This document shows positions 2,009 through 43,866 of a stretch of 64,000 nt of DNA, in pieces. The position numbers were made by a program, and so were the translations under genes. Under the pieces are notes generated by a model. That model worked only from the letters and a program-made list of their open reading frames with translations, had not been told where the DNA came from and searched no databases. Positions within the stretch are counted from its first letter, which is position 1. Each line of letters begins with the position of its first letter. Source of the DNA: Patescibacteria group bacterium (GTDB lineage: Bacteria > Patescibacteriota > JAQUNI01). The stretch is from positions 8,599-72,598 of the forward strand of contig JAQUNI010000004.1 in the NCBI GenBank assembly GCA_028717685.1, read 5' to 3'.

Positions 2009-3037
2009 TTAGAGGGAATATTTTTCAAATAATTTTTTCGCCATTTCCCAGTAGGTACTATCTCCTTTTGTTTTAAGATAATACCACCATTCAACGCCCC
2101 AAAAATAGGCGGTATCGAAACCGCATTCTTTACTATAATCCACAATTTCTTGAAATTTTTCCGGACTCATTGTTTTAGCTATTATTTCGGGGGCAGCGTT
2201 TTTAATATCGCCGCCGTGGATCCATGGCTCGGCTTGTTGCTCCGAAACAATCACCGGTTTGTTCCCGAATAAGAATTTCATTAAAGCCACTTTGCGGTGG
2301 TAAAAAATCGCTGGGATTCGATATTTAGTATAGCCGGCAAAACGATTGTAAACATATTTGTAAAGCGATGTGCCAAAGATTTCAGCGCGGCGATATTCGC
2401 CGAGCCAAAGGGAGAATTCGCCCGATGAGGTAAGCATAATAGGACGGGAATCTCGCGCTCGCACAAAGATGATTTCTTCTTCAAAAAGTTTTTTATCCCT
2501 TTGGGGGCAATTTCCAAAGCTACGAAAGAAAAAGGGTTCATTTTCTACCTGCCAGATTTTAATATGGTCGTCATTTTTGTAGCGGTCGATAATTTTTCCA
2601 ATGAGCGATAAGAGATGCTTTTGCCTTTCTGCCGCGGGAAGAGAAAACGCCCAAGCGGGAATATGGCATTCAGGCCAGCGGGGGACTTTTTCCCCAAAGG
2701 CGAGGATAATTTCTCCATCCCTTTTGTCAATTTCCGCAATCTGCCAATCTAAATCCGAGAAGTCATATTCCCCTTCTGTTTTTTCCAGATCATCCCAGTA
2801 AGCCATCAAGCGGAATTTTTGCGCTCCCAAATCATCCAAAATCGCGTTCAGAGCGGCTTCCGGATCCAGATTATACTCTCGCATATTTTTTGCGGAAAAG
2901 TTGACCCCATATTCCACATTATTAGCCGGGTCAGAGATGCCGAGTAAAAAATAAATTAGAATTACTCCCAATAAGCCAATAATTACAGTTATGGATATTA
3001 TAAAAAATTTCTTCATAGAGTAATCCTTATAACGCAT
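2009..3037 (-). CDS. Membrane-anchored glycoside hydrolase, clan GH-A (GH5/GH42-like TIM barrel). The start may instead be at 3016 (MKKFF...).
   Basis: N-terminal TM/signal anchor. 'WQVENEP' has the NEP acid/base motif typical of clan GH-A. Aromatic-rich (Y/W) as in TIM-barrel glycosidases. Confidence 0.55.
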   Translation of the reverse strand: MRYKDYSMKKFFIISITVIIGLLGVILIYFLLGISDPANNVEYGVNFSAKNMREYNLDPEAALNAILDDLGAQKFRLMAYWDDLEKTEGEYDFSDLDWQIAEIDKRDGEIILAFGEKVPRWPECHIPAWAFSLPAAERQKHLLSLIGKIIDRYKNDDHIKIWQVENEPFFFRSFGNCPQRDKKLFEEEIIFVRARDSRPIMLTSSGEFSLWLGEYRRAEIFGTSLYKYVYNRFAGYTKYRIPAIFYHRKVALMKFLFGNKPVIVSEQQAEPWIHGGDIKNAAPEIIAKTMSPEKFQEIVDYSKECGFDTAYFWGVEWWYYLKTKGDSTYWEMAKKLFEKYSL

Positions 3038-3075
3038 TTTTAAGTTGCAAATTACACGTTACAAGTTGCGAGAAT

Positions 3076-3966
3076 TTATTTAAACGCCAAAATCGCCAAT
3101 CCAAAGGTAATCAGAACTACGGCGATAATTTTTTGCACTTTTTGATTTTTAAATTCCTCAGCAAAAAGGGCAGGAATTTTTTCCGACAGAATCAAGGCGA
3201 TGATCAGGAGAAAAATGTATTGGACCCCTTGAAGGGCGTTTACTATAATAACCGAGGAAAGAAAGATAGCATAATTCAGCATTATCGCGGCAAGGGCGGC
3301 AATAACACGAATACCAAGATAGCTTAAGCTTACCTTCGTTCCCGCTTTTTGAGGCGCTTTTTTAATTTTTTTACGCCAGAGAGGTACGAGAAAGATAGAC
3401 AATGCCAGAGCGAGGCTCCCTATTTTAATCCAAATAAACCCTACCCAGAACGGAGTCAGATTATAGACATATTTAGTAAGAATAAAGGAAGCCGCGAAAC
3501 AAAACGCGGCAGCCAAGCCATACATTACGCCTTGTCTGGAAAAAAGATTGCGGCGGCGGCGTTCGGCGGTAATCAATATGCCCCCTAATATTAAGAGATA
3601 AAAAGCAATAAATTGGTCTCGGTTTAATTTTTCCTGTAAGAAGATGGAGCTTAAAATGAAAGTAAAGAGCGGCACCATTGTGCCAATAAAAGGGATGATG
3701 CGAGAGGTTGGATTTTTTTCAATTGCCGAGAAAAAGAAAATGAGAGCAATAACAAAAAAAGCGCCTGCGGCAAGGGCGGCGACGATAACTTTCCCTCTCG
3801 GCATCTGCCAAGCGAGGGGAAATAAAAATATAGCCGATCCCCCCAAAAGGCCGTTATAGAAAGCGTAGGCTAAAGGGGATTTAACTTCGCGGGATAAAAT
3901 ATATTTGTCGCCCACGGAAACAATAGCATAAAGAAGATGAGCGGCAATAACTAAGAGAAGCCACAT
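3076..3966 (-). CDS. EamA/DMT-superfamily transporter (10 TM)
   Basis: 296 aa, two repeated 5-TM halves. The N-terminus 'LLYAIVSVGDKYIL' resembles EamA. Confidence 0.7.
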   Translation of the reverse strand: MWLLLVIAAHLLYAIVSVGDKYILSREVKSPLAYAFYNGLLGGSAIFLFPLAWQMPRGKVIVAALAAGAFFVIALIFFFSAIEKNPTSRIIPFIGTMVPLFTFILSSIFLQEKLNRDQFIAFYLLILGGILITAERRRRNLFSRQGVMYGLAAAFCFAASFILTKYVYNLTPFWVGFIWIKIGSLALALSIFLVPLWRKKIKKAPQKAGTKVSLSYLGIRVIAALAAIMLNYAIFLSSVIIVNALQGVQYIFLLIIALILSEKIPALFAEEFKNQKVQKIIAVVLITFGLAILAFK

Positions 3967-4118: not shown

Positions 4119-5300
4119 TTAGAAATTCTTGATGATGTCGGCATAAACGCGCGCTGATGGTCGGATGATTCGCTTTTGAGTGCGATAATCTATTTCAATT
4201 AAGCCAAAACGTGGTGAAAATCCGCGCGCCCATTCAAAATTGTCTATTAAAGACCAATGAAAATAACCGCGAACATCAATATTTTGAGCTATTGCCTTTT
4301 GGATCATCTCAATATGTTTAGTGATGAATTGGGCGCGGTATTTATCCTTTTGATCCGCCAAGCCATTTTCGGTGATATAAATGGGCAAATTAAACTTTTT
4401 TAATTCCCATAAAATCTGATATAAACCCTCGGGGTATATCTCCCATCCTAAATCCGAGGTTGTATTATTTTGTGCGCGAGAGATGGCATCTTTCATTTTG
4501 TAAAAAGGGGGCGCTAATTGAGCTTGAATTTTATAATGGAAATAATAGTTAATGCCCAGGAAATCGTGGCACCTTTTTGTTTTTTTATAAAAAACATTAT
4601 TCCAAAATTTTTTTGCTATCTTGCAAGCTAATTTGTCTAAGGGAGAGCTGGCGGCGTCAAAATAAATATAATTTTTCGCAATCCCGACTTGGGCTTCAGG
4701 GAGAAGCGCGTGAATTTTTTCATAGGCTTGCTTGTGGCATTCCGCAAGTCTGTTGATAACCCTTTTATATTGCCAGAAGCTTTTTTTACCCGGCGGCCAG
4801 TCGCCTGCTAGATAGCCGTGGCTAGCGAAAACATTTGGTTCATTGATGGTGATCCAAAAATCAACATAGCCAGAGAATTTTTTGACCGCTAATTCCGCAA
4901 GACGGGTGAAATAAAAAACACCTTTGGGATGCAAAAATCCCCCCTTTTTCGCGAGCCATAAAGGCAGGGTGAAATGATGGAGGGTAAGCATTACCTTGAA
5001 GCCTTTTTCTTTCAAGGCTTTGAATACCTGCAGGTAGTGATTGATTTCTTGGGTGTTAAAATTGCCTTCTTGAGGTTCAAGGCGGCTCCATTCAAGAGAT
5101 AAACGGTGGGCATTGTGATTCAAATTTTTTGCCCGCTCAAAATCTTCTTGAAATAGATTATAGTGATTACAGGCGAGCCCTGAAGATTTCAGCCCCCTTT
5201 TTTGTTCCCATTCCCACCAGTCGCTATTATAGTTATTACCTTCCACTTGATAAGCGCTTGTGGCAGCACCCCAGAGGAAGTTGGGAGGAAAACGAAACAT
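4119..5300 (-). CDS. Glycoside hydrolase family 1 beta-glucosidase
   Basis: N-terminal 'FLWGAATSAYQVEG' GH1 signature, catalytic 'TINEP' and 'ITENG' motifs. Confidence 0.85.
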   Translation of the reverse strand: MFRFPPNFLWGAATSAYQVEGNNYNSDWWEWEQKRGLKSSGLACNHYNLFQEDFERAKNLNHNAHRLSLEWSRLEPQEGNFNTQEINHYLQVFKALKEKGFKVMLTLHHFTLPLWLAKKGGFLHPKGVFYFTRLAELAVKKFSGYVDFWITINEPNVFASHGYLAGDWPPGKKSFWQYKRVINRLAECHKQAYEKIHALLPEAQVGIAKNYIYFDAASSPLDKLACKIAKKFWNNVFYKKTKRCHDFLGINYYFHYKIQAQLAPPFYKMKDAISRAQNNTTSDLGWEIYPEGLYQILWELKKFNLPIYITENGLADQKDKYRAQFITKHIEMIQKAIAQNIDVRGYFHWSLIDNFEWARGFSPRFGLIEIDYRTQKRIIRPSARVYADIIKNF

Positions 5301-5438
5301 AAAAATTCAAAATTTAAAATTAAAAATGTAAAATTGCAATGCAAAATTAAAAATTTTGAATTTTAAGTTGTCTCGCTTTGCGAGATCTTGCAAAGCGATG
5401 ATAATTTTTCATTTTGCATTTTTAATTTTTAATTTTAT

Positions 5439-5633
5439 CTAGATTCCCCGAAACAGCGCTCCTAAGATTAGAAGTAGTGGCGCTCCCATTAATGCCCACA
5501 TCCCTACTTCAAAATCTACTCTATAGAAAGGCAGGGGTAAAATAGTACCGAAAATTCCTGTCAGAAGCAAGCCTAAAGCAGCAATCATTGTAATTAAACG
5601 CGGGGGGCTTATTAATTTTTTCAGGCTTTTCAT
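5439..5633 (-). CDS. Small membrane protein (2 TM), hypothetical
   Basis: 64 aa, hydrophobic. Its start overlaps the upstream gene stop by 4 nt (ATGA), implying an operon with 5630..5875. Confidence 0.4.
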   Translation of the reverse strand: MKSLKKLISPPRLITMIAALGLLLTGIFGTILPLPFYRVDFEVGMWALMGAPLLLILGALFRGI

Positions 5634-5875
5634 ATTTTTTTCAATATTGATCCTAATAGAAGTATCACCGTAGAAATAATTAATAAAGAGATTATCAGAA
5701 TATCAGGAAAAGAGAATAAAAAATAGCCCCCTACTCCAGCAACCCAGAAGAGAATGCCGAAAATTAAGGTCAACAGTTTTGGAGGGTCAGGATGACTTTG
5801 GACCAAAACCCAAAAAATCCGCAGATTTTTTGGGACACTTCGGTATTTAGAGAATGAATTTTTTCTTTTTTTCAC
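5630..5875 (-). CDS. Small membrane protein, hypothetical
   Basis: 81 aa. Basic N-terminus followed by two hydrophobic segments. Confidence 0.4.
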   Translation of the reverse strand: MKKRKNSFSKYRSVPKNLRIFWVLVQSHPDPPKLLTLIFGILFWVAGVGGYFLFSFPDILIISLLIISTVILLLGSILKKI

Positions 5876-37866: not shown

Positions 37867-38307
37867 TTATTTTTTATAAACAACAAAATAAGGCAACTTA
37901 TCTAACCCAATATAATTAAACATCCAAAGTTCTCGGCCTGATTTTTTTATTGTAGTAAATCTTTTTCTCAAATTTACTTTTGGAATGAATGGATAAAATC
38001 TAATTTCTTGGCGTTTACCACCTTGCCCGTTCCATTTGAAATTTACTATTAATGGTGGGGTAATAAATCCTGATTTCAAAACTTTATCAATAATTTCCCA
38101 TCCCGCTCCAAAGATGATGGACTTTGGTTTGCATAGGTTTGTTTTTATTTGAGCGCGAAACGAACAAGCTGTACATTGCACGTCGTACAGAGGGTAGCTC
38201 TCCGGCAATAACATCAATTTTTTCTTACAATTTGGGCAAGATACTAAATTGACAACCTCCTGCTCTCCAAGATTGCCAGCATATTTGTTTCCGTGATTAT
38301 TTTTCAT
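37867..38307 (-). CDS. Small Zn-ribbon protein (about 147 aa), possible nuclease or accessory component of the R-M island
   Basis: 'CPNCKKK...CTAC' ribbon followed by 'DVQ...AQIK'. Immediately downstream of the beta-class methyltransferase. Start chosen at the MKNNHG Met to avoid a 50-nt overlap. Confidence 0.3.
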   Translation of the reverse strand: MKNNHGNKYAGNLGEQEVVNLVSCPNCKKKLMLLPESYPLYDVQCTACSFRAQIKTNLCKPKSIIFGAGWEIIDKVLKSGFITPPLIVNFKWNGQGGKRQEIRFYPFIPKVNLRKRFTTIKKSGRELWMFNYIGLDKLPYFVVYKK

Positions 38308-38311
38308 AATT

Positions 38312-39088
38312 CTATGTAATAGTTTCCATCCTATGTTTAGCCATTTTAGAATACTTGGCATTTTTTTCTATCCCTATCCACTTTCTGCCTAATTTTTTTG
38401 CAACTACAGCTGTGGTGCCGCTACCTAAAAATGGGTCTAAAACCAGATCGCCTTTATTTGAGGACGCAACGATGATCCTTTTTAGCATCTCTTCCGGTTT
38501 CTGTGTTGGGTGTAATGCTCTACCATCCTTTCCATGTAATCTTTCTTTTCCTTGTACTAAAGGCAATGACCAAACATCCCTCATTTGTTTGAGTGCCCCA
38601 TTTTTCTGTGTTTCAGGGTTTATTTTTTTTAATTCGACATAGTTAAAAATCCATTTTTTACCCTTAACCGCCCAAACGACAAATTCTGTTGAGTGAGTAA
38701 AAACTCTTTTTGTCATATTGGGCATCGCGTTTGTTTTTTGCCAAACAATGACATTATTAATTTTGAAATCGAACTGTTTCAGTACAATGATCACCTCTGC
38801 AAGATTGTGGTAGGTGCAAGAAATATAGATTGAGCCATTATCTTTCAATATTTTGTGGCAAGCACCAATCCATTTTTTCGTAAACTGTATATATTCTGGG
38901 GCGGTCATTTTATCCCATTCTTCGTTCACCATATACCAATCACCGCCAGTTTTATTTCCTTCCCATTTAAGACCATTGCCCGAAAGATTGTAGGGCGGAT
39001 CGGCAAAAATCAACTCAACTGACTTTTTATCAATTTTTTCATTCAATATTTTTATGCAATCGTCAGTGTAAATAGTGTTGAGCTTCAT
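38312..39088 (-). CDS. DNA methyltransferase, beta-class (N6-adenine or N4-cytosine)
   Basis: Motif IV 'FADPPYN' precedes motif I 'DPFLGSGTT' (beta permutation). Start [11 protein letters not shown]. Confidence 0.7.
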
Positions 39089-39090
39089 AA

Positions 39091-40923
39091 TTATTGCTTT
39101 GCTAAAATAGATTTTTGCCATTCAGTAATTGTTTCCGGTATTTGCTCAATCCACTTCTCGGAATGAGCAACACGATTCGTTAGACTGAGGATTTGTTCAT
39201 AAAGATTTAATAACTCATCGTGCGTAAATCGTTTTCCTTGTTTTCTGATTTCTAAAAGACTTTCAAGTAGTCTGACAAATTGCGCAATAGAGAGGGGAAC
39301 AATTTTTTGTGCAGTTCCTTTATAGCCGTATTTTATCGCCATCCAAAATGTCTCAACGGTATCTTGATGTAGTCGTGGAGCAATGAATAGGCAATAAGCT
39401 GTCTTGTCGGTATGGGATTCTTCAAAGTCGCGCACATGACGCATAACAGGTTGTCCCTCGTTGTACCACTGTGAACGATTCGTCAGCATTGTAACCTCGC
39501 ATACGGAATTAAACTGTTCATAAAAGCATTCTATATCCGGCTTATTGGCTGGCGCAGTAAAAGTAGGCTCGTTGTCATCTCCAACCGGATAGTTTGGTTT
39601 AATCTCTAGTGCGTCGTTAAGAGCGTTGAGTGCAAGCGTTGAGAGCCTTTCAAGTTCAATACTCTTTTTATTGTCTGACTGATAAATACCCCTAAGTGCG
39701 TTAATATATTCTTGAATTTTAGCGACATCTTGCGATTCAAAATGAGTTTCAAGCTCTTGTAGTTTTCTACGGTAACCTCGCAATTGCTCGATATACTCTT
39801 TTAGTTGATCCTCAATTAAGCTCTCAATCTTTTTAAAATGAAAGGGCGGTGCTGTTATTATTTTTGATTTCAGATCGATTACATATTCTTGCACATCCCG
39901 ACTCAATTTTTCTGCAATTTTTCCTAACTCCGATTTTGTTTCCCACGGCAAAACAGGTTGCTCAATATCGGCAAGATATTCTATGTATTTGTCGGCATTT
40001 TCGTATGCTAGAGGAGCGGCATTATCCGTAGAGAGTAATTTATCAATCTCGATAGACCTTCTTGGTTCCAAATTAACATAAAACCCGCCGCCCCGAATAT
40101 GTAGATATCTGGTTAATCTGAAATATCGAATCGCGTTGTCGCCATAATCCTTAAGGTTGTTAAGAAGTTTTTTAATTTCACTGCCTTTGTTTGTTCTTAA
40201 AAATGTTTTGGAAAAATTATTTCCAAACTTTTTTTTAAATTGCTTTCTTCTCTTGTCGTCTTTTTGTGAACGCAGCCCAACTCGATATTCAATTAGTTTT
40301 TCCGCTTGCTTTTTGATATTTTTGTAATCTATAAGCGTTGGTGCAAATAAAGAGAATTCATCTTTACTTATTCCGATAGGGTTATTTCCTAATTTTACCC
40401 ATCTCTTGTTCACTTCGTTTATAAGATGTAATGCTCCTATAAATGGTTTGATAGCAAATCCGTCATTTTCTGAAAATGTTGTACTTGCTGGGTTAGGAAG
40501 TTGCCATTTCAAAAAGTGTATAAAGAACAATTTACCCAAATCATAATTTTCAGAAAGAAGATATTCGCCTAGTGGGGTAATCTTAACGCCTTCGACTGAA
40601 TTTTTGGCTATACACAAACCCATTTTATTAAGTGGCGCAACAGAATTTCTGCCACGCATTGCCGGATCTTCGTAACCTTGTACATTAAAAATTTCTTTTG
40701 CAACAGAAAATGGCATTTCTGTTTCAATATCATCAAAATATTCTTGTTGTTCTCTGGTTAAATTAGTTGGTTTGTAAAACCTATTTTGAATGAGGAGAAT
40801 TTGGTATTTAATTTGATTCTCTGAATTAAAGGGTTGTCCCTCTAGTTCTTTCAGAACGCGCAAGAAATCCCGTAATCTATCGGGGTTTCTCACTGTTGTT
40901 GATATTGACCAAGGTTTTTTCAT
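39091..40923 (-). CDS. Putative Type IIS restriction endonuclease, AlwI/Nt.BstNBI family
   Basis: 610 aa. N-terminus '[23 protein letters not shown]' follows the W-x-V/I-S...R-x-P-E/D pattern I recall for the Nt.BstNBI/AlwI N-terminal region. Flanked by two methyltransferases in the same orientation. Confidence 0.5.
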
Positions 40924-40928
40924 AATTG

Positions 40929-42743
40929 TTATTTTATTACTTTACAATAAAAGATTCGTTCTGTGTGTCCATCAGTATCGCTTTTGCCTGTTGTAAATGC
41001 TTTATAATCCCTTTCAAAAATATCAACATTGCCACGAGTTTTTAATATATTTATAATTCGCTTATCACTAATGCGAGCATTTGATCTTCCGTCCTTAGAT
41101 TCGCCGGTGTTATTATAAGAAACCAAAATATGTTTACAGTTTGCGTTCGAAATTAAATCAGCAAATGCCCTCGATGCTGACTGTAGACAGTAATCACTTT
41201 TAATATGTGACCTATCCATCTTTTTTGCTTTGCCATACACTGATGGTTTTTCCCAAGTAGCAAGGTTTTCTAGAAGGTGATAGGCGTCAGAATACTGGCG
41301 AGAATTATAAGGTGGATCAATATATAAAACGTCACACCTTATTTTTTTGATAAGCTGATTTGCGTCTTTTTTATATATTTCATTATTTGAGTTATTTTCT
41401 GGCTCAAAATCCGGAACCAAAAGACGTAGTGGTTGGATTGTGTCTAGTTTTTTTCTGTATGCATCATAGTGGCCAACTGTATTTGCCACCTTATCAACTG
41501 CGTATAGTAATGTAGTAATCAAAACAGCTCTCTCATTATCGCTTTTTGCAATCTCGTCAATTTTTTCTCTGACAGCGCCGATTTTGCGAGCGTTCTCTAA
41601 GGTGAAAAAGGTATTGCCGAAATGTTCAGAAAAATAATTGTCATTGTGCACTTCTAAGTTATTGAGCAGCTCTATTTTCTTTTCTATTTCCTTAAAATCA
41701 ATTTTCGAAGTTCCCAAAAAAGATTTTAATGGTAGATAATTACTTACTAAAAAGTCGTTGGCAATAACTTTTATATCTTTTTCATTAAATCGTTCACCAA
41801 CAACACCAGTACCCGCAAAAATATCACAGAACACACCGAAGCCGTTGCATTTTTCGTTGACAATATCCTCAATAAGACCGAGCAGTTTATATTTATTTCC
41901 TAAAAATCTTCTATTTTGCAGCTGGAAACGCCCCGACTTAATTCTACTTTCAGGGTAAAAATATACCTTATGTATTTTTTTTATTTCTGGGGTATAAGTT
42001 GGTTGTGCAGTTTCTAATAGATCGAAAAGGGAATTTTGTACACCATCAGAAATATAATGCGTTACTTTACTATCCGAGCTTTGTATTTCAGAAAAAAAAC
42101 TGTGAGTGTCATTTTCACTAACAATAATAAAATCAATAACATTCACACCCATTATTTTACCTGCTTCGAGAATTTTATTCACGACTTCCATATCTTGTTT
42201 ACTGGGGGTAACATCTCCTGATGGGTGATTATGTAACAAAATGATCCCAGCCGCTCGTAACTCGACGGCGGGGCCAAAAATTTCTCGTGGATGAATAATG
42301 CTTTTATCTAATATACCGATAGATATAATTTCTTTTTTCAGTAGCGCATTTCTTGCGTTGAGATATAGACATACCAAATACTCTTTTTTCTTGTCTCGTA
42401 TGTCGGAAGTTAAAGAAATCGCATCTTGGGCGGATAAAACAATGTTATCTTTTGGTTCCAATTCTTCATAAAATCTTTTTATTAACGCCAGAGCAGAAAC
42501 AATTTGTAGGGCTTTTGCCTCTCCAATTCCAGAAATTTTCAAAAGATCATCAACTATTATGTCTAAAAATTTATTTCCGAATTTTCTGATTATCTGTTCG
42601 GAAAGTTGTTTAACATTTTTTCCCTTAATTCCGCTTCCAATAAGAATAGCCAAAAGCTCGCTTTTAGAAAGAGCATCTGGACCTTTTTCTAAAAACCTTT
42701 CGCGTGGCCTATTAATTTTTGGAATGTCTTTAAGCTTTCCCAT
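40929..42743 (-). CDS. Fusion protein: RadC-like JAB/MPN domain (N-terminal) plus Dam-like alpha-class N6-adenine DNA methyltransferase (C-terminal)
   Basis: RadC N-terminal HhH 'ELLAILIGSGIKG' and JAB motif 'IILLHNHPSGD'. Then Dam-family motifs 'FLGNKYKLL', 'FCDIFAGTG', 'VLYIDPPYN'. Confidence 0.7.
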   Translation of the reverse strand: MGKLKDIPKINRPRERFLEKGPDALSKSELLAILIGSGIKGKNVKQLSEQIIRKFGNKFLDIIVDDLLKISGIGEAKALQIVSALALIKRFYEELEPKDNIVLSAQDAISLTSDIRDKKKEYLVCLYLNARNALLKKEIISIGILDKSIIHPREIFGPAVELRAAGIILLHNHPSGDVTPSKQDMEVVNKILEAGKIMGVNVIDFIIVSENDTHSFFSEIQSSDSKVTHYISDGVQNSLFDLLETAQPTYTPEIKKIHKVYFYPESRIKSGRFQLQNRRFLGNKYKLLGLIEDIVNEKCNGFGVFCDIFAGTGVVGERFNEKDIKVIANDFLVSNYLPLKSFLGTSKIDFKEIEKKIELLNNLEVHNDNYFSEHFGNTFFTLENARKIGAVREKIDEIAKSDNERAVLITTLLYAVDKVANTVGHYDAYRKKLDTIQPLRLLVPDFEPENNSNNEIYKKDANQLIKKIRCDVLYIDPPYNSRQYSDAYHLLENLATWEKPSVYGKAKKMDRSHIKSDYCLQSASRAFADLISNANCKHILVSYNNTGESKDGRSNARISDKRIINILKTRGNVDIFERDYKAFTTGKSDTDGHTERIFYCKVIK

Positions 42744-42769: not shown

Positions 42770-42915
42770 GCCCTGTAGTGAGACTTCAGTCCCGAGGAAC
42801 ATTCAGTCCCGAGGGATTCTCTACTACGGGGCAAGAGCCCTCCTACGCTCTTTGGGCTACGGAGTATTTTTCTCCCACCCCCTCCATCTCCCCCTCGGGC
42901 AGGGGGAGTGTAATT
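42770..42915. repeat. MITE family A copy with a tandem ttcagtcccgagg duplication in the left arm
   Basis: ccctgtagtgagacttcagtcccgaggaacattcagtcccgaggg...ctcccaccccctccatctccccctcgggcagggggagtgtaattc. Confidence 0.6.
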
Positions 42916-43118
42916 CATCTTATAATTTCGGCACTTCGTCCCTTCTTCGTCGCTTCGCTCCTTAAGAGTTCCTCAGTGTCTTTAATTTTCATCTAACTAT
43001 ATAGTAGGTGGTCAAAGATAATACCCTTCTACTTCGCTACGCTCAGTATCAGGGACTTCTTCTTTTTTATATAGAGCCGGAGGCACTGATGAGCCTCCGT
43101 CTCAAAGGAGGCGAAGAA

Positions 43119-43132
43119 GTGCTGGGGAGGCA
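43119..43132. repeat. 14-nt exact direct repeat of the tRNA-Gln 3' end (att-like site)
   Basis: gctggggaggcagg is identical to 43505-43518, i.e. tRNA positions 61-74 in reverse complement. Brackets the GIY-YIG gene. Confidence 0.55.
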
Positions 43133-43177
43133 GGTGTCCTTCGCCTGCGGCTTCGGAGCACCTAATTACCTCCAAAA

Positions 43178-43438
43178 CTATTCCTTCTTCAAGGCTTCGG
43201 GAATAAGTCTTTTATATGTAAATGCTTTACCTGAACCAGTTTTTAAATATTTTTCAAACAACTTTGCCTTTTTAATTGTTGAAAATCCACAATACCAAAC
43301 AAGTTGCCAAGGAATAAAAGGTTTAGTTGATTTAGATAAGCCTTGGTTGTGTTCAGTATATCTTTTTTTGAGATTGTTTGTATAGCCAAAATAAAGCTTT
43401 TTTGATTTTAGACTATAAAGAATATAGCAATAATACAT
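43178..43438 (-). CDS. GIY-YIG nuclease domain protein (YhbQ/UPF0213-like)
   Basis: 'YYCYILYS...LYFGYTNNLKKRYTEHN' GIY-YIG motifs, 86 aa. Confidence 0.7.
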   Translation of the reverse strand: MYYCYILYSLKSKKLYFGYTNNLKKRYTEHNQGLSKSTKPFIPWQLVWYCGFSTIKKAKLFEKYLKTGSGKAFTYKRLIPEALKKE

Positions 43439-43502
43439 ATTTGCCTCTTATTAAACTTTATCAGATTTGAGGCGTAAGCCATTCCGAAGCCTTGGCGAAG
43501 GA

Positions 43503-43576
43503 TGGCTGGGGAGGCAGGATTCGGACCTGCGATGATAGGTTCAGAGCCTATTGCCTTACCGCTTGGCTACTCCCCA
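43503..43576 (-). tRNA. tRNA-Gln (anticodon CUG), CCA encoded
   Basis: UGGGGAG acceptor pairs with CUCCCCA. D-loop AGCGGUAA. Anticodon loop CUCUGAA. T-arm GCAGG-UCCGAAU-CCUGC. G73-CCA. Architecture matches E. coli tRNA-Gln. Confidence 0.85.
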
Positions 43577-43866
43577 ATGAAAAGTTAAATCTCAAAAGTA
43601 AAAAGTTAAAAGTAAAAAATATAATTTTAAAATTTTACGGAATAAGGAAATTGTGAATCATGAATTTCATTTTCTTCACTGCAAATTATACCAAATTTTT
43701 GCCTTAAAGTAAAGATTTCCCGAGCTGTTTTAGGGAATAAAATAGCCCTCTGGCGATTAAGAGGGCTTTACCCACTTTAGAGTTGGAATTTTAAGATTAT
43801 CTCTTTAATTAAACCCCTCTCTAATTTCCCCTTGTCAGGGGAGAGGTTTGATTCTCCATTTAAAGG

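Follow-up and report, generated by a model that had tools for sequence, protein, structure and literature searches.

A putative tRNA-targeted GIY-YIG nuclease element with a duplicated tRNA 3′ end in a Patescibacteria genome

In contig JAQUNI010000004.1 of a Patescibacteria group bacterium, a tRNA-Gln(CTG) gene and an exact 14-nt copy of part of its 3′ end enclose a gene for a GIY-YIG nuclease of only 86 amino acids (aa). We analyzed this arrangement within a 64,000-nt stretch of the contig, hereafter the window. The 14-nt repeat is probably the target duplication of a small selfish element that inserted immediately 3′ of the tRNA gene, a judgement that covers the whole reading including the mechanism proposed below; we are more confident of a mobile element with a target duplication as such, and less confident of the cut positions. 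The element spans approximately 43135 to 43504 (~370 bp) and has a transposon-like layout, consisting of a left hairpin, one nuclease gene and an inverted right hairpin. Its presence or absence between close relatives, and its occurrence at different tRNA genes, are shown by comparison of aligned loci.

Results

The tRNA-Gln(CTG) gene, with an encoded CCA, lies on the minus strand at 43503–43576 (ARAGORN; Rfam tRNA, 65.2 bits). An exact 14-mer from its 3′ end (CCTGCCTCCCCAGC) occurs twice in the 64 kb, both times on the minus strand: at 43505–43518, inside the tRNA gene, and at 43121–43134. The original prediction of an exact direct repeat, made from the letters of the window, is thus borne out, although it had placed the distal copy 2 nt away, at 43119–43132. 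The proximal copy corresponds to tRNA positions 61–74, comprising the 3′ strands of the T and acceptor stems together with G73 and C74. Searching the whole window with up to two mismatches returned the same two sites alone (0.20 expected), and no further partial copies of the tRNA tail were found elsewhere in the window; within these 64 kb, the 14-mer does not behave as the dispersed repeat that had been named as a possible counter-explanation. The repeat extends imperfectly to 25 nt (22/25 identical; 43110–43134 versus 43494–43518), beyond the tRNA end. Chance is excluded as its origin, since such a repeat recurs in 15 further loci of the subfamily and matches the local tRNA in each.

The sole credible open reading frame (ORF) between the two copies is the nuclease gene (43178–43438, minus strand). 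The nuclease gene had been described as the only content of this interval, which holds for genes, but the interval also contains two conserved hairpins. The left terminal hairpin, or T-hairpin (43478–43506, minus strand; GCCATCC / TTCGCCAAGGCTTC / GGAATGGC; inverted repeat I1), has a stem, GCCATCC/GGAATGGC, that begins at G73-C74-C75-A76 of the tRNA and encloses the core TTCGCCAAGGCTTC. Its inverted counterpart, the right terminal G-hairpin (43133–43162, minus strand; GGTGCTCC / GAAGCCGCAGGCGAA / GGACACC), was recognized from sequence and fold; its stem, GGTGCTCC/GGACACC, terminates in C61-C62 of the distal repeat and encloses GAAGCC...GGCGAA, and a G-hairpin is found at the equivalent position in other type-1 loci. 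Together, the hairpins give the element terminal inverted repeats with 19-nt arms that are 89% complementary and are kept across the family. Protein alignment identified an additional G-type motif within the nuclease ORF (43182–43200, minus strand; CCGAAGCCTTGAAGAAGGA), which codes for the conserved C-terminal PEALKKE of the family. An E-value-based Rfam scan of 42–48 kb matched the tRNA alone and no other known RNA family.

We used a profile of 28 nuclease homologues to fetch 80 metagenomic loci. Within these loci, 44 of the 65 tRNA genes end no more than 300 nt upstream of a nuclease ORF on the same strand, compared with 2.9 expected under random placement, while opposite-strand tRNAs are absent from that upstream range in all 80; the amino-acid specificities number fifteen. 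A close subfamily, with 58–67% identity to the window protein and exclusively Candidate Phyla Radiation (CPR)-like members, has a constant architecture of tRNA, left hairpin, ORF, right hairpin and tRNA 3′-end copy, in which the left hairpin begins 3–5 nt past the called tRNA end and the right hairpin lies at or just after the stop codon. The 3′-end repeat is present in 13/13 close-subfamily loci that have an intact tRNA and enough downstream sequence (9–19 nt; p ≤ 0.007 with 300 shuffles each). It can also be found in L057, which belongs to a more distant branch, and in L092 and L102 (L-numbers denote public contig loci that were compared with the window). The repeat starts at tRNA position 61 in most loci and ends between positions 73 and 76; this length and fixed start are unusual for the target-site duplication of a transposon.

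The sequence of the repeat follows that of the tRNA. Close-subfamily repeats match their own tRNA for Gln, Asn, Ser and Trp, and nucleases that are 76–85% identical to one another occur behind tRNA genes for Gln, Asn and Ser, each with its own matching repeat. When such copies are aligned in pairs, their DNA is homologous from exactly N73-C74 onwards, as far as the right hairpin. In L102, the native GCCA is kept in the distal copy, and the proximal copy enters the hairpin straight after G73. Since related elements each repeat the end of their own tRNA, the repeat is made from the target at each insertion and is not a fixed att core carried by the element.

The closest database relative of the window nuclease (P0001, 97% identity) is encoded in L004, adjoining dnaX. 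The L004 element comes from another sample and shares 95.3% DNA identity with that of the window, and it sits behind a tRNA-Gln(TTG) gene whose acceptor, D and T arms are the same as those of the window tRNA and whose anticodon arm differs (85% identity overall). It is bounded by the same 14-nt repeat, while its outer flanks are unrelated to those of the window. In L004, the distal repeat is directly followed by TCGAGCAAAGCGAGACACTGAGG, a sequence that in L001 stands directly after the native tRNA 3′ end; the distal copy therefore occupies the place of the tRNA 3′ end. Comparison of the two nuclease ORFs revealed nine synonymous and three nonsynonymous codon differences, which indicates that the gene is maintained by purifying selection.

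Matches to the window FtsX, which is encoded upstream of the tRNA, are found in Candidatus Doudnabacteria contigs, and more relatives were fetched via FtsX homologues. In L001 (FtsX 97% identical to that of the window), L002 (83%) and L003 (69%), ftsX is followed by a tRNA-Gln(CTG) gene with no GIY-YIG gene. The tRNA-Gln of these three loci is a different allele, “type A” (TGCCGGGTCG...), from the “type B” allele of the window. L090/L091 (68%) carry the type-B tRNA with one copy of the 14-mer and no insert, and on alignment are a clean empty site. Relatives therefore do show the insertion/deletion difference for which the original prediction suggested looking. Nucleotide homology between the window and L001 ends just after the tRNA promoter (43687) and picks up again at 42981, with blastn aligning window positions 42896–42981 to L001 6464–6558.

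Other relatives differ in further ways. L003 (11140–11220) and L090 (4002–4080) have a common downstream flank behind a type A and a type B tRNA-Gln(CTG), respectively, and by this comparison are a clean tRNA allele swap with no nuclease gene left behind. In L087/L088 (73%; L087 3640–4728, L088 2220–3310), ftsX is followed by a 21-nt 5′ stump of a type-B tRNA-Gln (TTGGGGAGTAGCCAAGTGGTAA), then by a 294-aa ORF with a faint LAGLIDADG_3 match and an intact A-like tRNA-Gln(CTG), and the same tRNA gene appears to have been replaced here by another nuclease family, unrelated to the first. L089 (72%) has a third tRNA-Gln allele followed by a 3′ stump of B. The contig of L086 (95%) ends in adapter sequence before the tRNA and is thus uninformative on the element; the Illumina adapter (AGATCGGAAGAGCGTCGTG; L086 1799–1817, ERZ27248180 k141_670405) is an assembly contaminant, and the locus also carries a bAvd/23S_rRNA_IVP-like gene upstream of ftsX. 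Collectively, the window, L001, L002, L003, L087, L089 and L090 all differ after ftsX, even in the tRNA-Gln allele. Judged by these alignments, the ftsX–tRNA-Gln locus is a site of repeated tRNA replacement and a hot spot for it.

Several additional features were observed in these tRNA genes and in L004. The T loop of the window tRNA-Gln (43521–43527) reads TCCGAAT, with C at position 55, which is normally U; the same is seen in L004, L092 and L007, whereas the empty type-B allele of L090 reads TTCGAAT and the other occupied tRNAs have a normal loop. The substitution may affect recognition by the nuclease or simply be lineage variation. Remnants of type-B tRNA-Gln in L089 (2124–2196) and L004 (4535–4575) have their T loop interrupted between positions 57 and 58 by the same 40-nt double hairpin (CCCCGTCATTCGACGGGGCGCCCCGTTGCATAACGGGGCG), in opposite orientations in the two loci; this hairpin may represent a distinct miniature element with the T loop as its target. 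At 4411–4860 and 5431–5647, L004 also carries a broken tRNA-Gln copy and further GIY-YIG genes. Inserts of ~40 nt interrupt this tRNA copy in each of its D, anticodon and T loops, that of the anticodon loop being a G-type hairpin, and a divergent second GIY-YIG gene (103 aa) comes immediately afterwards. Another such gene, the third, starts 70 nt past the distal repeat of the L004 element, giving three GIY-YIG genes in 1.2 kb.

The hairpin ends are conserved in structure across the family. Left hairpins are located directly after the tRNA end in most family loci, and the 38 distinct examples share a conserved core, TTCGCyAArGCTwC, while their outer stems vary yet stay paired, with 16 different 5-nt arms. 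The outer stem has a mean of 6.8 contiguous pairs, against 2.9 with shuffled partners (the best of 1000 shuffles reached 4.1). At the inner y-r pair, 24 copies have T-A, 13 have C-G and one has T-G. Pairing bases covary with the tRNA end, as in GCCA/TGGC, GCAA/TTGC and GCTA/TAGC. G-T pairs are almost absent from the stems, which suits a DNA hairpin at least as well as an RNA hairpin. We also observed a hairpin module without an ORF in L050, where a GIY ORF (3001–3240) lies between a tRNA-Tyr (2788–2872) and a tRNA-Thr gene (3245–3317): the ~125-nt module that precedes the GIY gene, consisting of a T-hairpin and nested G-hairpins, recurs almost exactly after tRNA-Thr. By its sequence, this recurrence is a non-autonomous copy behind a second tRNA.

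The 86-aa protein matches the GIY-YIG domain over residues 1–75 (Pfam PF01541, 61.5 bits against a cut-off of 22.6). Across 28 sequences, Y5, Y16, G18 and E62 never vary, and conservation is at least 90% for R26 and H30; the residues of the catalytic motif, with roles assigned by analogy (the Tyr of “GIY”, the Tyr-x-Gly of “YIG”, the Arg and the putative metal-binding Glu), are present. The AlphaFold model (predicted local distance difference test score 91) shows three strands plus helices in the alpha/beta fold of GIY-YIG proteins. Its top Foldseek matches are 1ZG2 (the UPF0213 protein BH0048) and SLX1 structures, with a probability of 1.00 (SLX1 6SEH: TMq 0.66, root-mean-square deviation 2.4 Å), and both are also matched by sequence (1ZG2, E = 7.8e-10; SLX1, E = 1.9e-5). 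The catalytic domain of I-TevI is far more distant by sequence and fold. The protein thus belongs to the SLX1/UPF0213 branch, and the nearest folds of the model are those of structure-specific nucleases. It is a catalytic domain alone, with no DNA-binding domain of the kind found in homing enzymes. A match to TIGR01453 (18.9 bits) falls under the cut-off of 56, and no NCBIfam name was assigned. A tblastn search of 50,697 phage records gave no match, and neither PHROG nor PADLOC assigned the protein to a family that would point to a phage or defence origin. The family is large, with 5,621 relatives among 50%-identity cluster representatives at E ≤ 1e-3.

A promoter-like site (TTTACT-17-TGnTATAAT; 43685–43713, minus strand) precedes the tRNA-Gln gene and, from its sequence, would drive both the tRNA and, by read-through, the nuclease gene. 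The nuclease ORF has an AAGAGG Shine-Dalgarno sequence 7 nt upstream, and scanning revealed no terminator between the tRNA and the nuclease gene, nor any promoter or terminator of its own.

Beyond the distal repeat, we found what read as remains of an older element. A second, solo T-type hairpin (43083–43122, minus strand; stem GCACT/AGTGC with an enlarged apical loop; −8.4 kcal/mol, z = −2.5) begins at G73-C74 of the distal repeat and differs from the left hairpin. A relic at 42930–42990 (minus strand; GGAGCGAAGCGACGAAGAAGGGAC, reading ..LLRSEATKKGRS..) resembles the C-terminal coding end of a GIY-YIG gene and its G-type motif in alignments with L001 and L004; single-sequence folding predicts no hairpin at 42925–42995. 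Between them lies a weak candidate for a degenerate G-type hairpin of the older element (43024–43054, minus strand), which resembles the GCGAAGTAGA ends of L006 and folds no better than shuffled sequences (z = −0.8). From their sequences, the solo hairpin and the relic at 42930–42990 are read as remains of an older element that already lay behind the tRNA. The new insertion is read as having duplicated positions 61–74 and displaced the junction of the older element from the tRNA, an arrangement like that in L010, where a comparable solo hairpin follows the distal repeat. The other tRNA genes in the window, for Thr and Gly, have no element or hairpin downstream.

A restriction-modification (R-M) island (37867–42743) encodes a DpnI-like protein, an N4/N6 methylase, an AlwI-family endonuclease and a RadC-Dam fusion. 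It had been described as beginning just beyond the distal repeat, and it is indeed nearby, but its genes start at 42743, ~380 bp past the distal copy, and the gap holds the older-element relics and a dispersed GC-rich repeat. No third tRNA-end copy bounds the island, even at 10–12 nt with one mismatch, and nothing ties its arrival to the same mechanism as the GIY-YIG element. The proposal that the tRNA is a hot spot for serial insertions therefore holds in so far as the content after ftsX differs among the window, L001–L003, L087, L089 and L090, but does not extend to the R-M island, which is not bracketed by the repeat. Other loci concern the corresponding junction: in L102, a set of genes encoding a helix-turn-helix protein, RadC-N and a methylase comes right after the element, while L092 and L093, compared from position 2342, share an identical element and 14-nt repeat and then diverge exactly after the distal repeat, one having panD and a DUF1003 gene (~900 bp) that the other lacks. 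Because the content after the tRNA differs in every relative examined, and in view of the L092/L093 divergence and the L102 set, we regard the tRNA 3′ end, at the level of sequence, as a recurrent junction for foreign DNA, with no integrase in the islet and none visible for the R-M island.

Other features of this region were noted in passing. The RadC-Dam fusion has 604 aa and combines RadC (UPF0758_N and JAB) with a D12-class adenine methylase, and the GC content drops to 0.27 at 36–38 kb. The GC-rich intergenic repeat (CTCCCACCCCCTCCATCTCCCCCTCGGGCAGGGGGAGTGTAATT) has at least six copies in the window (42870–42915, ~12558, 26702, 26829, 33303, 45664 and 47055), holds a short hairpin (CCCCCTCGGGCAGGGGG), and also occurs in relatives (L001 6536–6642 and 8260–8488; L087 4800–4845). 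It is not part of the GIY-YIG element.

Discussion

We propose that insertion of the element would duplicate tRNA positions 61–74, leaving the tRNA whole and displacing its old tail, together with whatever followed it, by ~370 bp. The nuclease would be the mobility enzyme. It would recognize the hairpin ends, whose stems pair with N73-CCA of the tRNA and with C61-C62 of the duplicate, and it would also recognize a trait present in every tRNA gene, namely the T-arm box or its folded form. The two strands might be cut ~13–16 nt apart, at the boundary of T loop and T stem (60/61) and at the tRNA 3′ end (73–76), after which the element would be joined in, and fill-in of the staggered ends would yield the repeat. 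Expression of the nuclease gene by read-through from the tRNA promoter is likely, because there is no terminator between the two and a Shine-Dalgarno site is present. In addition, where two tRNA genes have the same 3′ half, as the two Gln isoacceptors do, nuclease-triggered gene conversion between them could use the duplicated tail as a short homology arm on the right-hand side.

Several observations weigh against this interpretation. Movement is inferred from sequence comparison. GIY-YIG nucleases hydrolyse DNA, and we know of none that joins DNA or makes a 13–16-nt stagger. In 11 of 26 close-subfamily loci, there is no intact upstream tRNA but just a degenerate, tRNA-tail-like stub that mismatches a well-formed right-hand piece, and relaxed ARAGORN and acceptor-strand searches revealed no hidden tRNAs upstream of these 11 loci. 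The repeat copies of L014 and L026 differ at 2/16 positions, while their distal pieces are identical to each other. More distant relatives place both hairpins between the tRNA and the ORF, usually with no repeat. The hairpin module may be the primary mobile unit, with the nuclease gene as its partner or passenger. Two widespread members (P0016 and P0030, 24 contigs each by exact-protein look-up) have one genomic context apiece, which indicates that movement is rare and gives no support for recent bursts, and the window holds a single copy of the element. Finally, single-sequence folding energies are unremarkable (z = −1.2 to −2.5; left hairpin z = −1.4), and the case for hairpin structure consequently rests on the covariation.

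We consider it rather unlikely, although with several observations in its favour, that the nuclease acts as a homing enzyme on the tRNA itself, cutting the resident tRNA gene so that the donor's complete tRNA and nuclease gene are copied in, with the distal repeat being the 3′ stump of the resident tRNA. This would account for the repeated swaps of tRNA-Gln after ftsX (type A in L001–L003 and type B in the window and L090, with the common flank of L003 and L090), for the 5′ stump of B in L087/L088 and the third allele with a 3′ stump of B in L089, and for the break in window–L001 homology upstream of the tRNA, which makes the whole tRNA differ and not the insert alone. It would also fit the broken older tRNA copy upstream of the intact one in L004, and the mismatched repeats of L014 and L026, which resemble two tRNA-Asn alleles. 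However, the distal piece in the window matches the present type B tRNA and not the type A tRNA of the nearest relatives, and a 5′ stump upstream of an intact tRNA occurs in just 1/15 loci (L004). Homology between related elements at different tRNAs excludes the tRNA body, and switching between Gln, Asn and Ser tRNAs with exactly matching repeats is unattainable by homology alone. Furthermore, the protein lacks a homing-type DNA-binding domain, and homing does not predict the target duplication that is present, although tRNA alleles have been exchanged at this locus. The two processes are not mutually exclusive, and both replacement of the tRNA and target duplication can hold.

It is improbable that the nuclease is an immobile host gene linked to tRNAs, for example one acting on tRNA precursors or protecting tRNA genes, with the hairpins and tail copy serving as processing or stability signals of a tRNA-mRNA co-transcript. 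The strict co-orientation with the tRNA and the missing terminator would be expected of such a gene, as would the left hairpin, which sequesters the CCA end and could be relevant to 3′ processing. In distant relatives, a G-type hairpin lies 25–45 nt before the start codon and can include the Shine-Dalgarno sequence, and members keep one locus across many samples. Against this, close relatives have no element at the corresponding locus, and a near-identical copy is found at another tRNA gene. For the tail copy, there is no 5′ acceptor strand to pair with, and its sequence follows the adjacent tRNA instead of being conserved. The scarcity of G-T pairs in the stems fits DNA as well as or better than RNA, and stumps and relics in tandem are frequent.

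Integrase-type integration classically leaves a direct repeat of a tRNA 3′ end, and the original prediction took the repeat as the footprint of site-specific integration. A footprint of insertion it does appear to be, but we find it highly improbable that a small circular element was integrated into the tRNA 3′ end, with the 14-mer as attL/attR core, by a recombinase that has since been lost or is encoded in another place. The repeat itself, the nearby R-M island and the L092/L093 divergence exactly after the distal repeat, where other DNA also joins, would agree with such an event. Nevertheless, as the original prediction had also stated, no integrase gene is present: the Pfam scan of ORFs of at least 100 aa at 31.5–44.8 kb recovered R-M enzymes and RadC, HD, NUDIX and cupin domains and no recombinase. 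Moreover, the unit measures only ~370 bp and is bounded by inverted hairpins, closely related elements differ in their repeat according to the tRNA, and ~16 loci of like architecture have no adjacent recombinase among their called genes inspected. Integrase-type integration is thus already largely refuted for this islet. A distal copy serving as a primer-binding site or a tRNA-like mRNA end was also rejected, given the lack of a reverse transcriptase and of a 5′ acceptor partner and the variation of the piece with the tRNA.

The insertion of a small element with target duplication, which we favour, has partial parallels in several known systems. The free-standing GIY-YIG homing genes of T-even phages (the Seg family, including SegB in the tRNA cluster of T4, with I-TevI as the enzymological model) are likewise nuclease-only selfish genes beside tRNAs with presence/absence polymorphism, but they encode proteins of ~200–250 aa with a separate DNA-binding domain and have no target duplication or terminal hairpins, whereas the element described here encodes 86 aa and has both. 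SegB has been linked in a recent study to rearrangement of a tRNA region (PMC13096335). By sequence and predicted fold, the proteins closest to the nuclease are SLX1 and UPF0213 proteins (YhbQ-like; BH0048 1ZG2, EF2693 1YWL), and a preference for branched or hairpin DNA, as in these proteins, would by analogy fit the hairpin ends. SLX1, however, acts with SLX4 in repair and not in a mobile unit, while the 86-aa gene is in a putative mobile unit; we found no assigned role for bacterial UPF0213 proteins in the literature searched.

Tyrosine or serine integrases that insert islands at tRNA 3′ ends also leave an intact tRNA with a copy of its 3′ end at the far side, but these islands carry a fixed core, whereas here there is no integrase, the unit is ~370 bp with inverted hairpins, and the repeat is copied from the target. 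Casposons target the 3′ end of tRNA (or EF-2) genes, where they create a 14–15-bp target duplication. They share terminal inverted repeats with our element, but measure 8–20 kb, come mostly from archaea and carry genes for Cas1 and a family B polymerase; our element has one 86-aa nuclease and neither Cas1 nor polymerase. IS200/IS605 and hairpin-ended miniature elements are similarly very small with imperfect hairpin ends. In IS608, DNA of the element pairs with a target tetranucleotide to choose the site, to which pairing of the left hairpin foot with the tRNA NCCA may be likened. In contrast to our element, with its inverted hairpins and duplication, IS200/IS605 elements rely on an HUH (TnpA) transposase, do not duplicate their target and carry two hairpins that point the same way. 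No known transposase class (DDE, HUH, serine, tyrosine or Cas1) is represented in our element, in which the GIY-YIG nuclease is the only ORF.

Within the same radiation, non-intron insertions (neither group I nor group II) with GIY-YIG ORFs, tending to lie at the tops or bases of stem-loops, have been described in CPR 16S and 23S rRNA genes (PMC11270868). By their description, these also place GIY-YIG ORFs in structured-RNA genes. Neither tRNA genes nor target duplications or terminal hairpins are mentioned in that study, which gives no mechanism and considered its GIY-YIG cases to fall outside homing spread (PMC11270868). It was the closest report in a full-text literature search, which returned no description of tRNA-linked GIY-YIG elements with target duplication.

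Conclusion

The element family, which sits just behind tRNA genes in many CPR bacteria, is apparently undescribed, and the element is best seen as a variant that combines known kinds, a selfish nuclease gene and a tRNA-targeted insertion. More tentatively, and with considerable doubt, it could be the first member of a hitherto unrecognized class of DNA transposons in prokaryotes, with an 86-aa GIY-YIG nuclease as its sole protein, hairpin ends that pair with the target, generic tRNA recognition through the T arm and CCA end, and a 13–16-bp duplication of positions 61–76 that spares tRNA function. Such a transposon may also drive tRNA allele turnover at the ftsX locus.

Small ORFs annotated as “GIY-YIG nuclease family protein” are very common in CPR genomes, and we found no role assigned to them. 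If our interpretation is correct, it would explain these ORFs as genes carried by an insertion element that seeks out tRNA genes and has end structures of its own, and it would also account for many short tRNA-tail fragments, for hairpins behind tRNA genes, and for part of the rapid replacement of tRNA genes between close strains. For annotation, a duplicated tRNA 3′ end should not automatically be called an integrase att site. A further nuclease family would join the enzymes that move DNA in bacteria, and essential genes would serve as safe landing sites by a route other than integrases, with a very small protein having a defined, universal genomic address.

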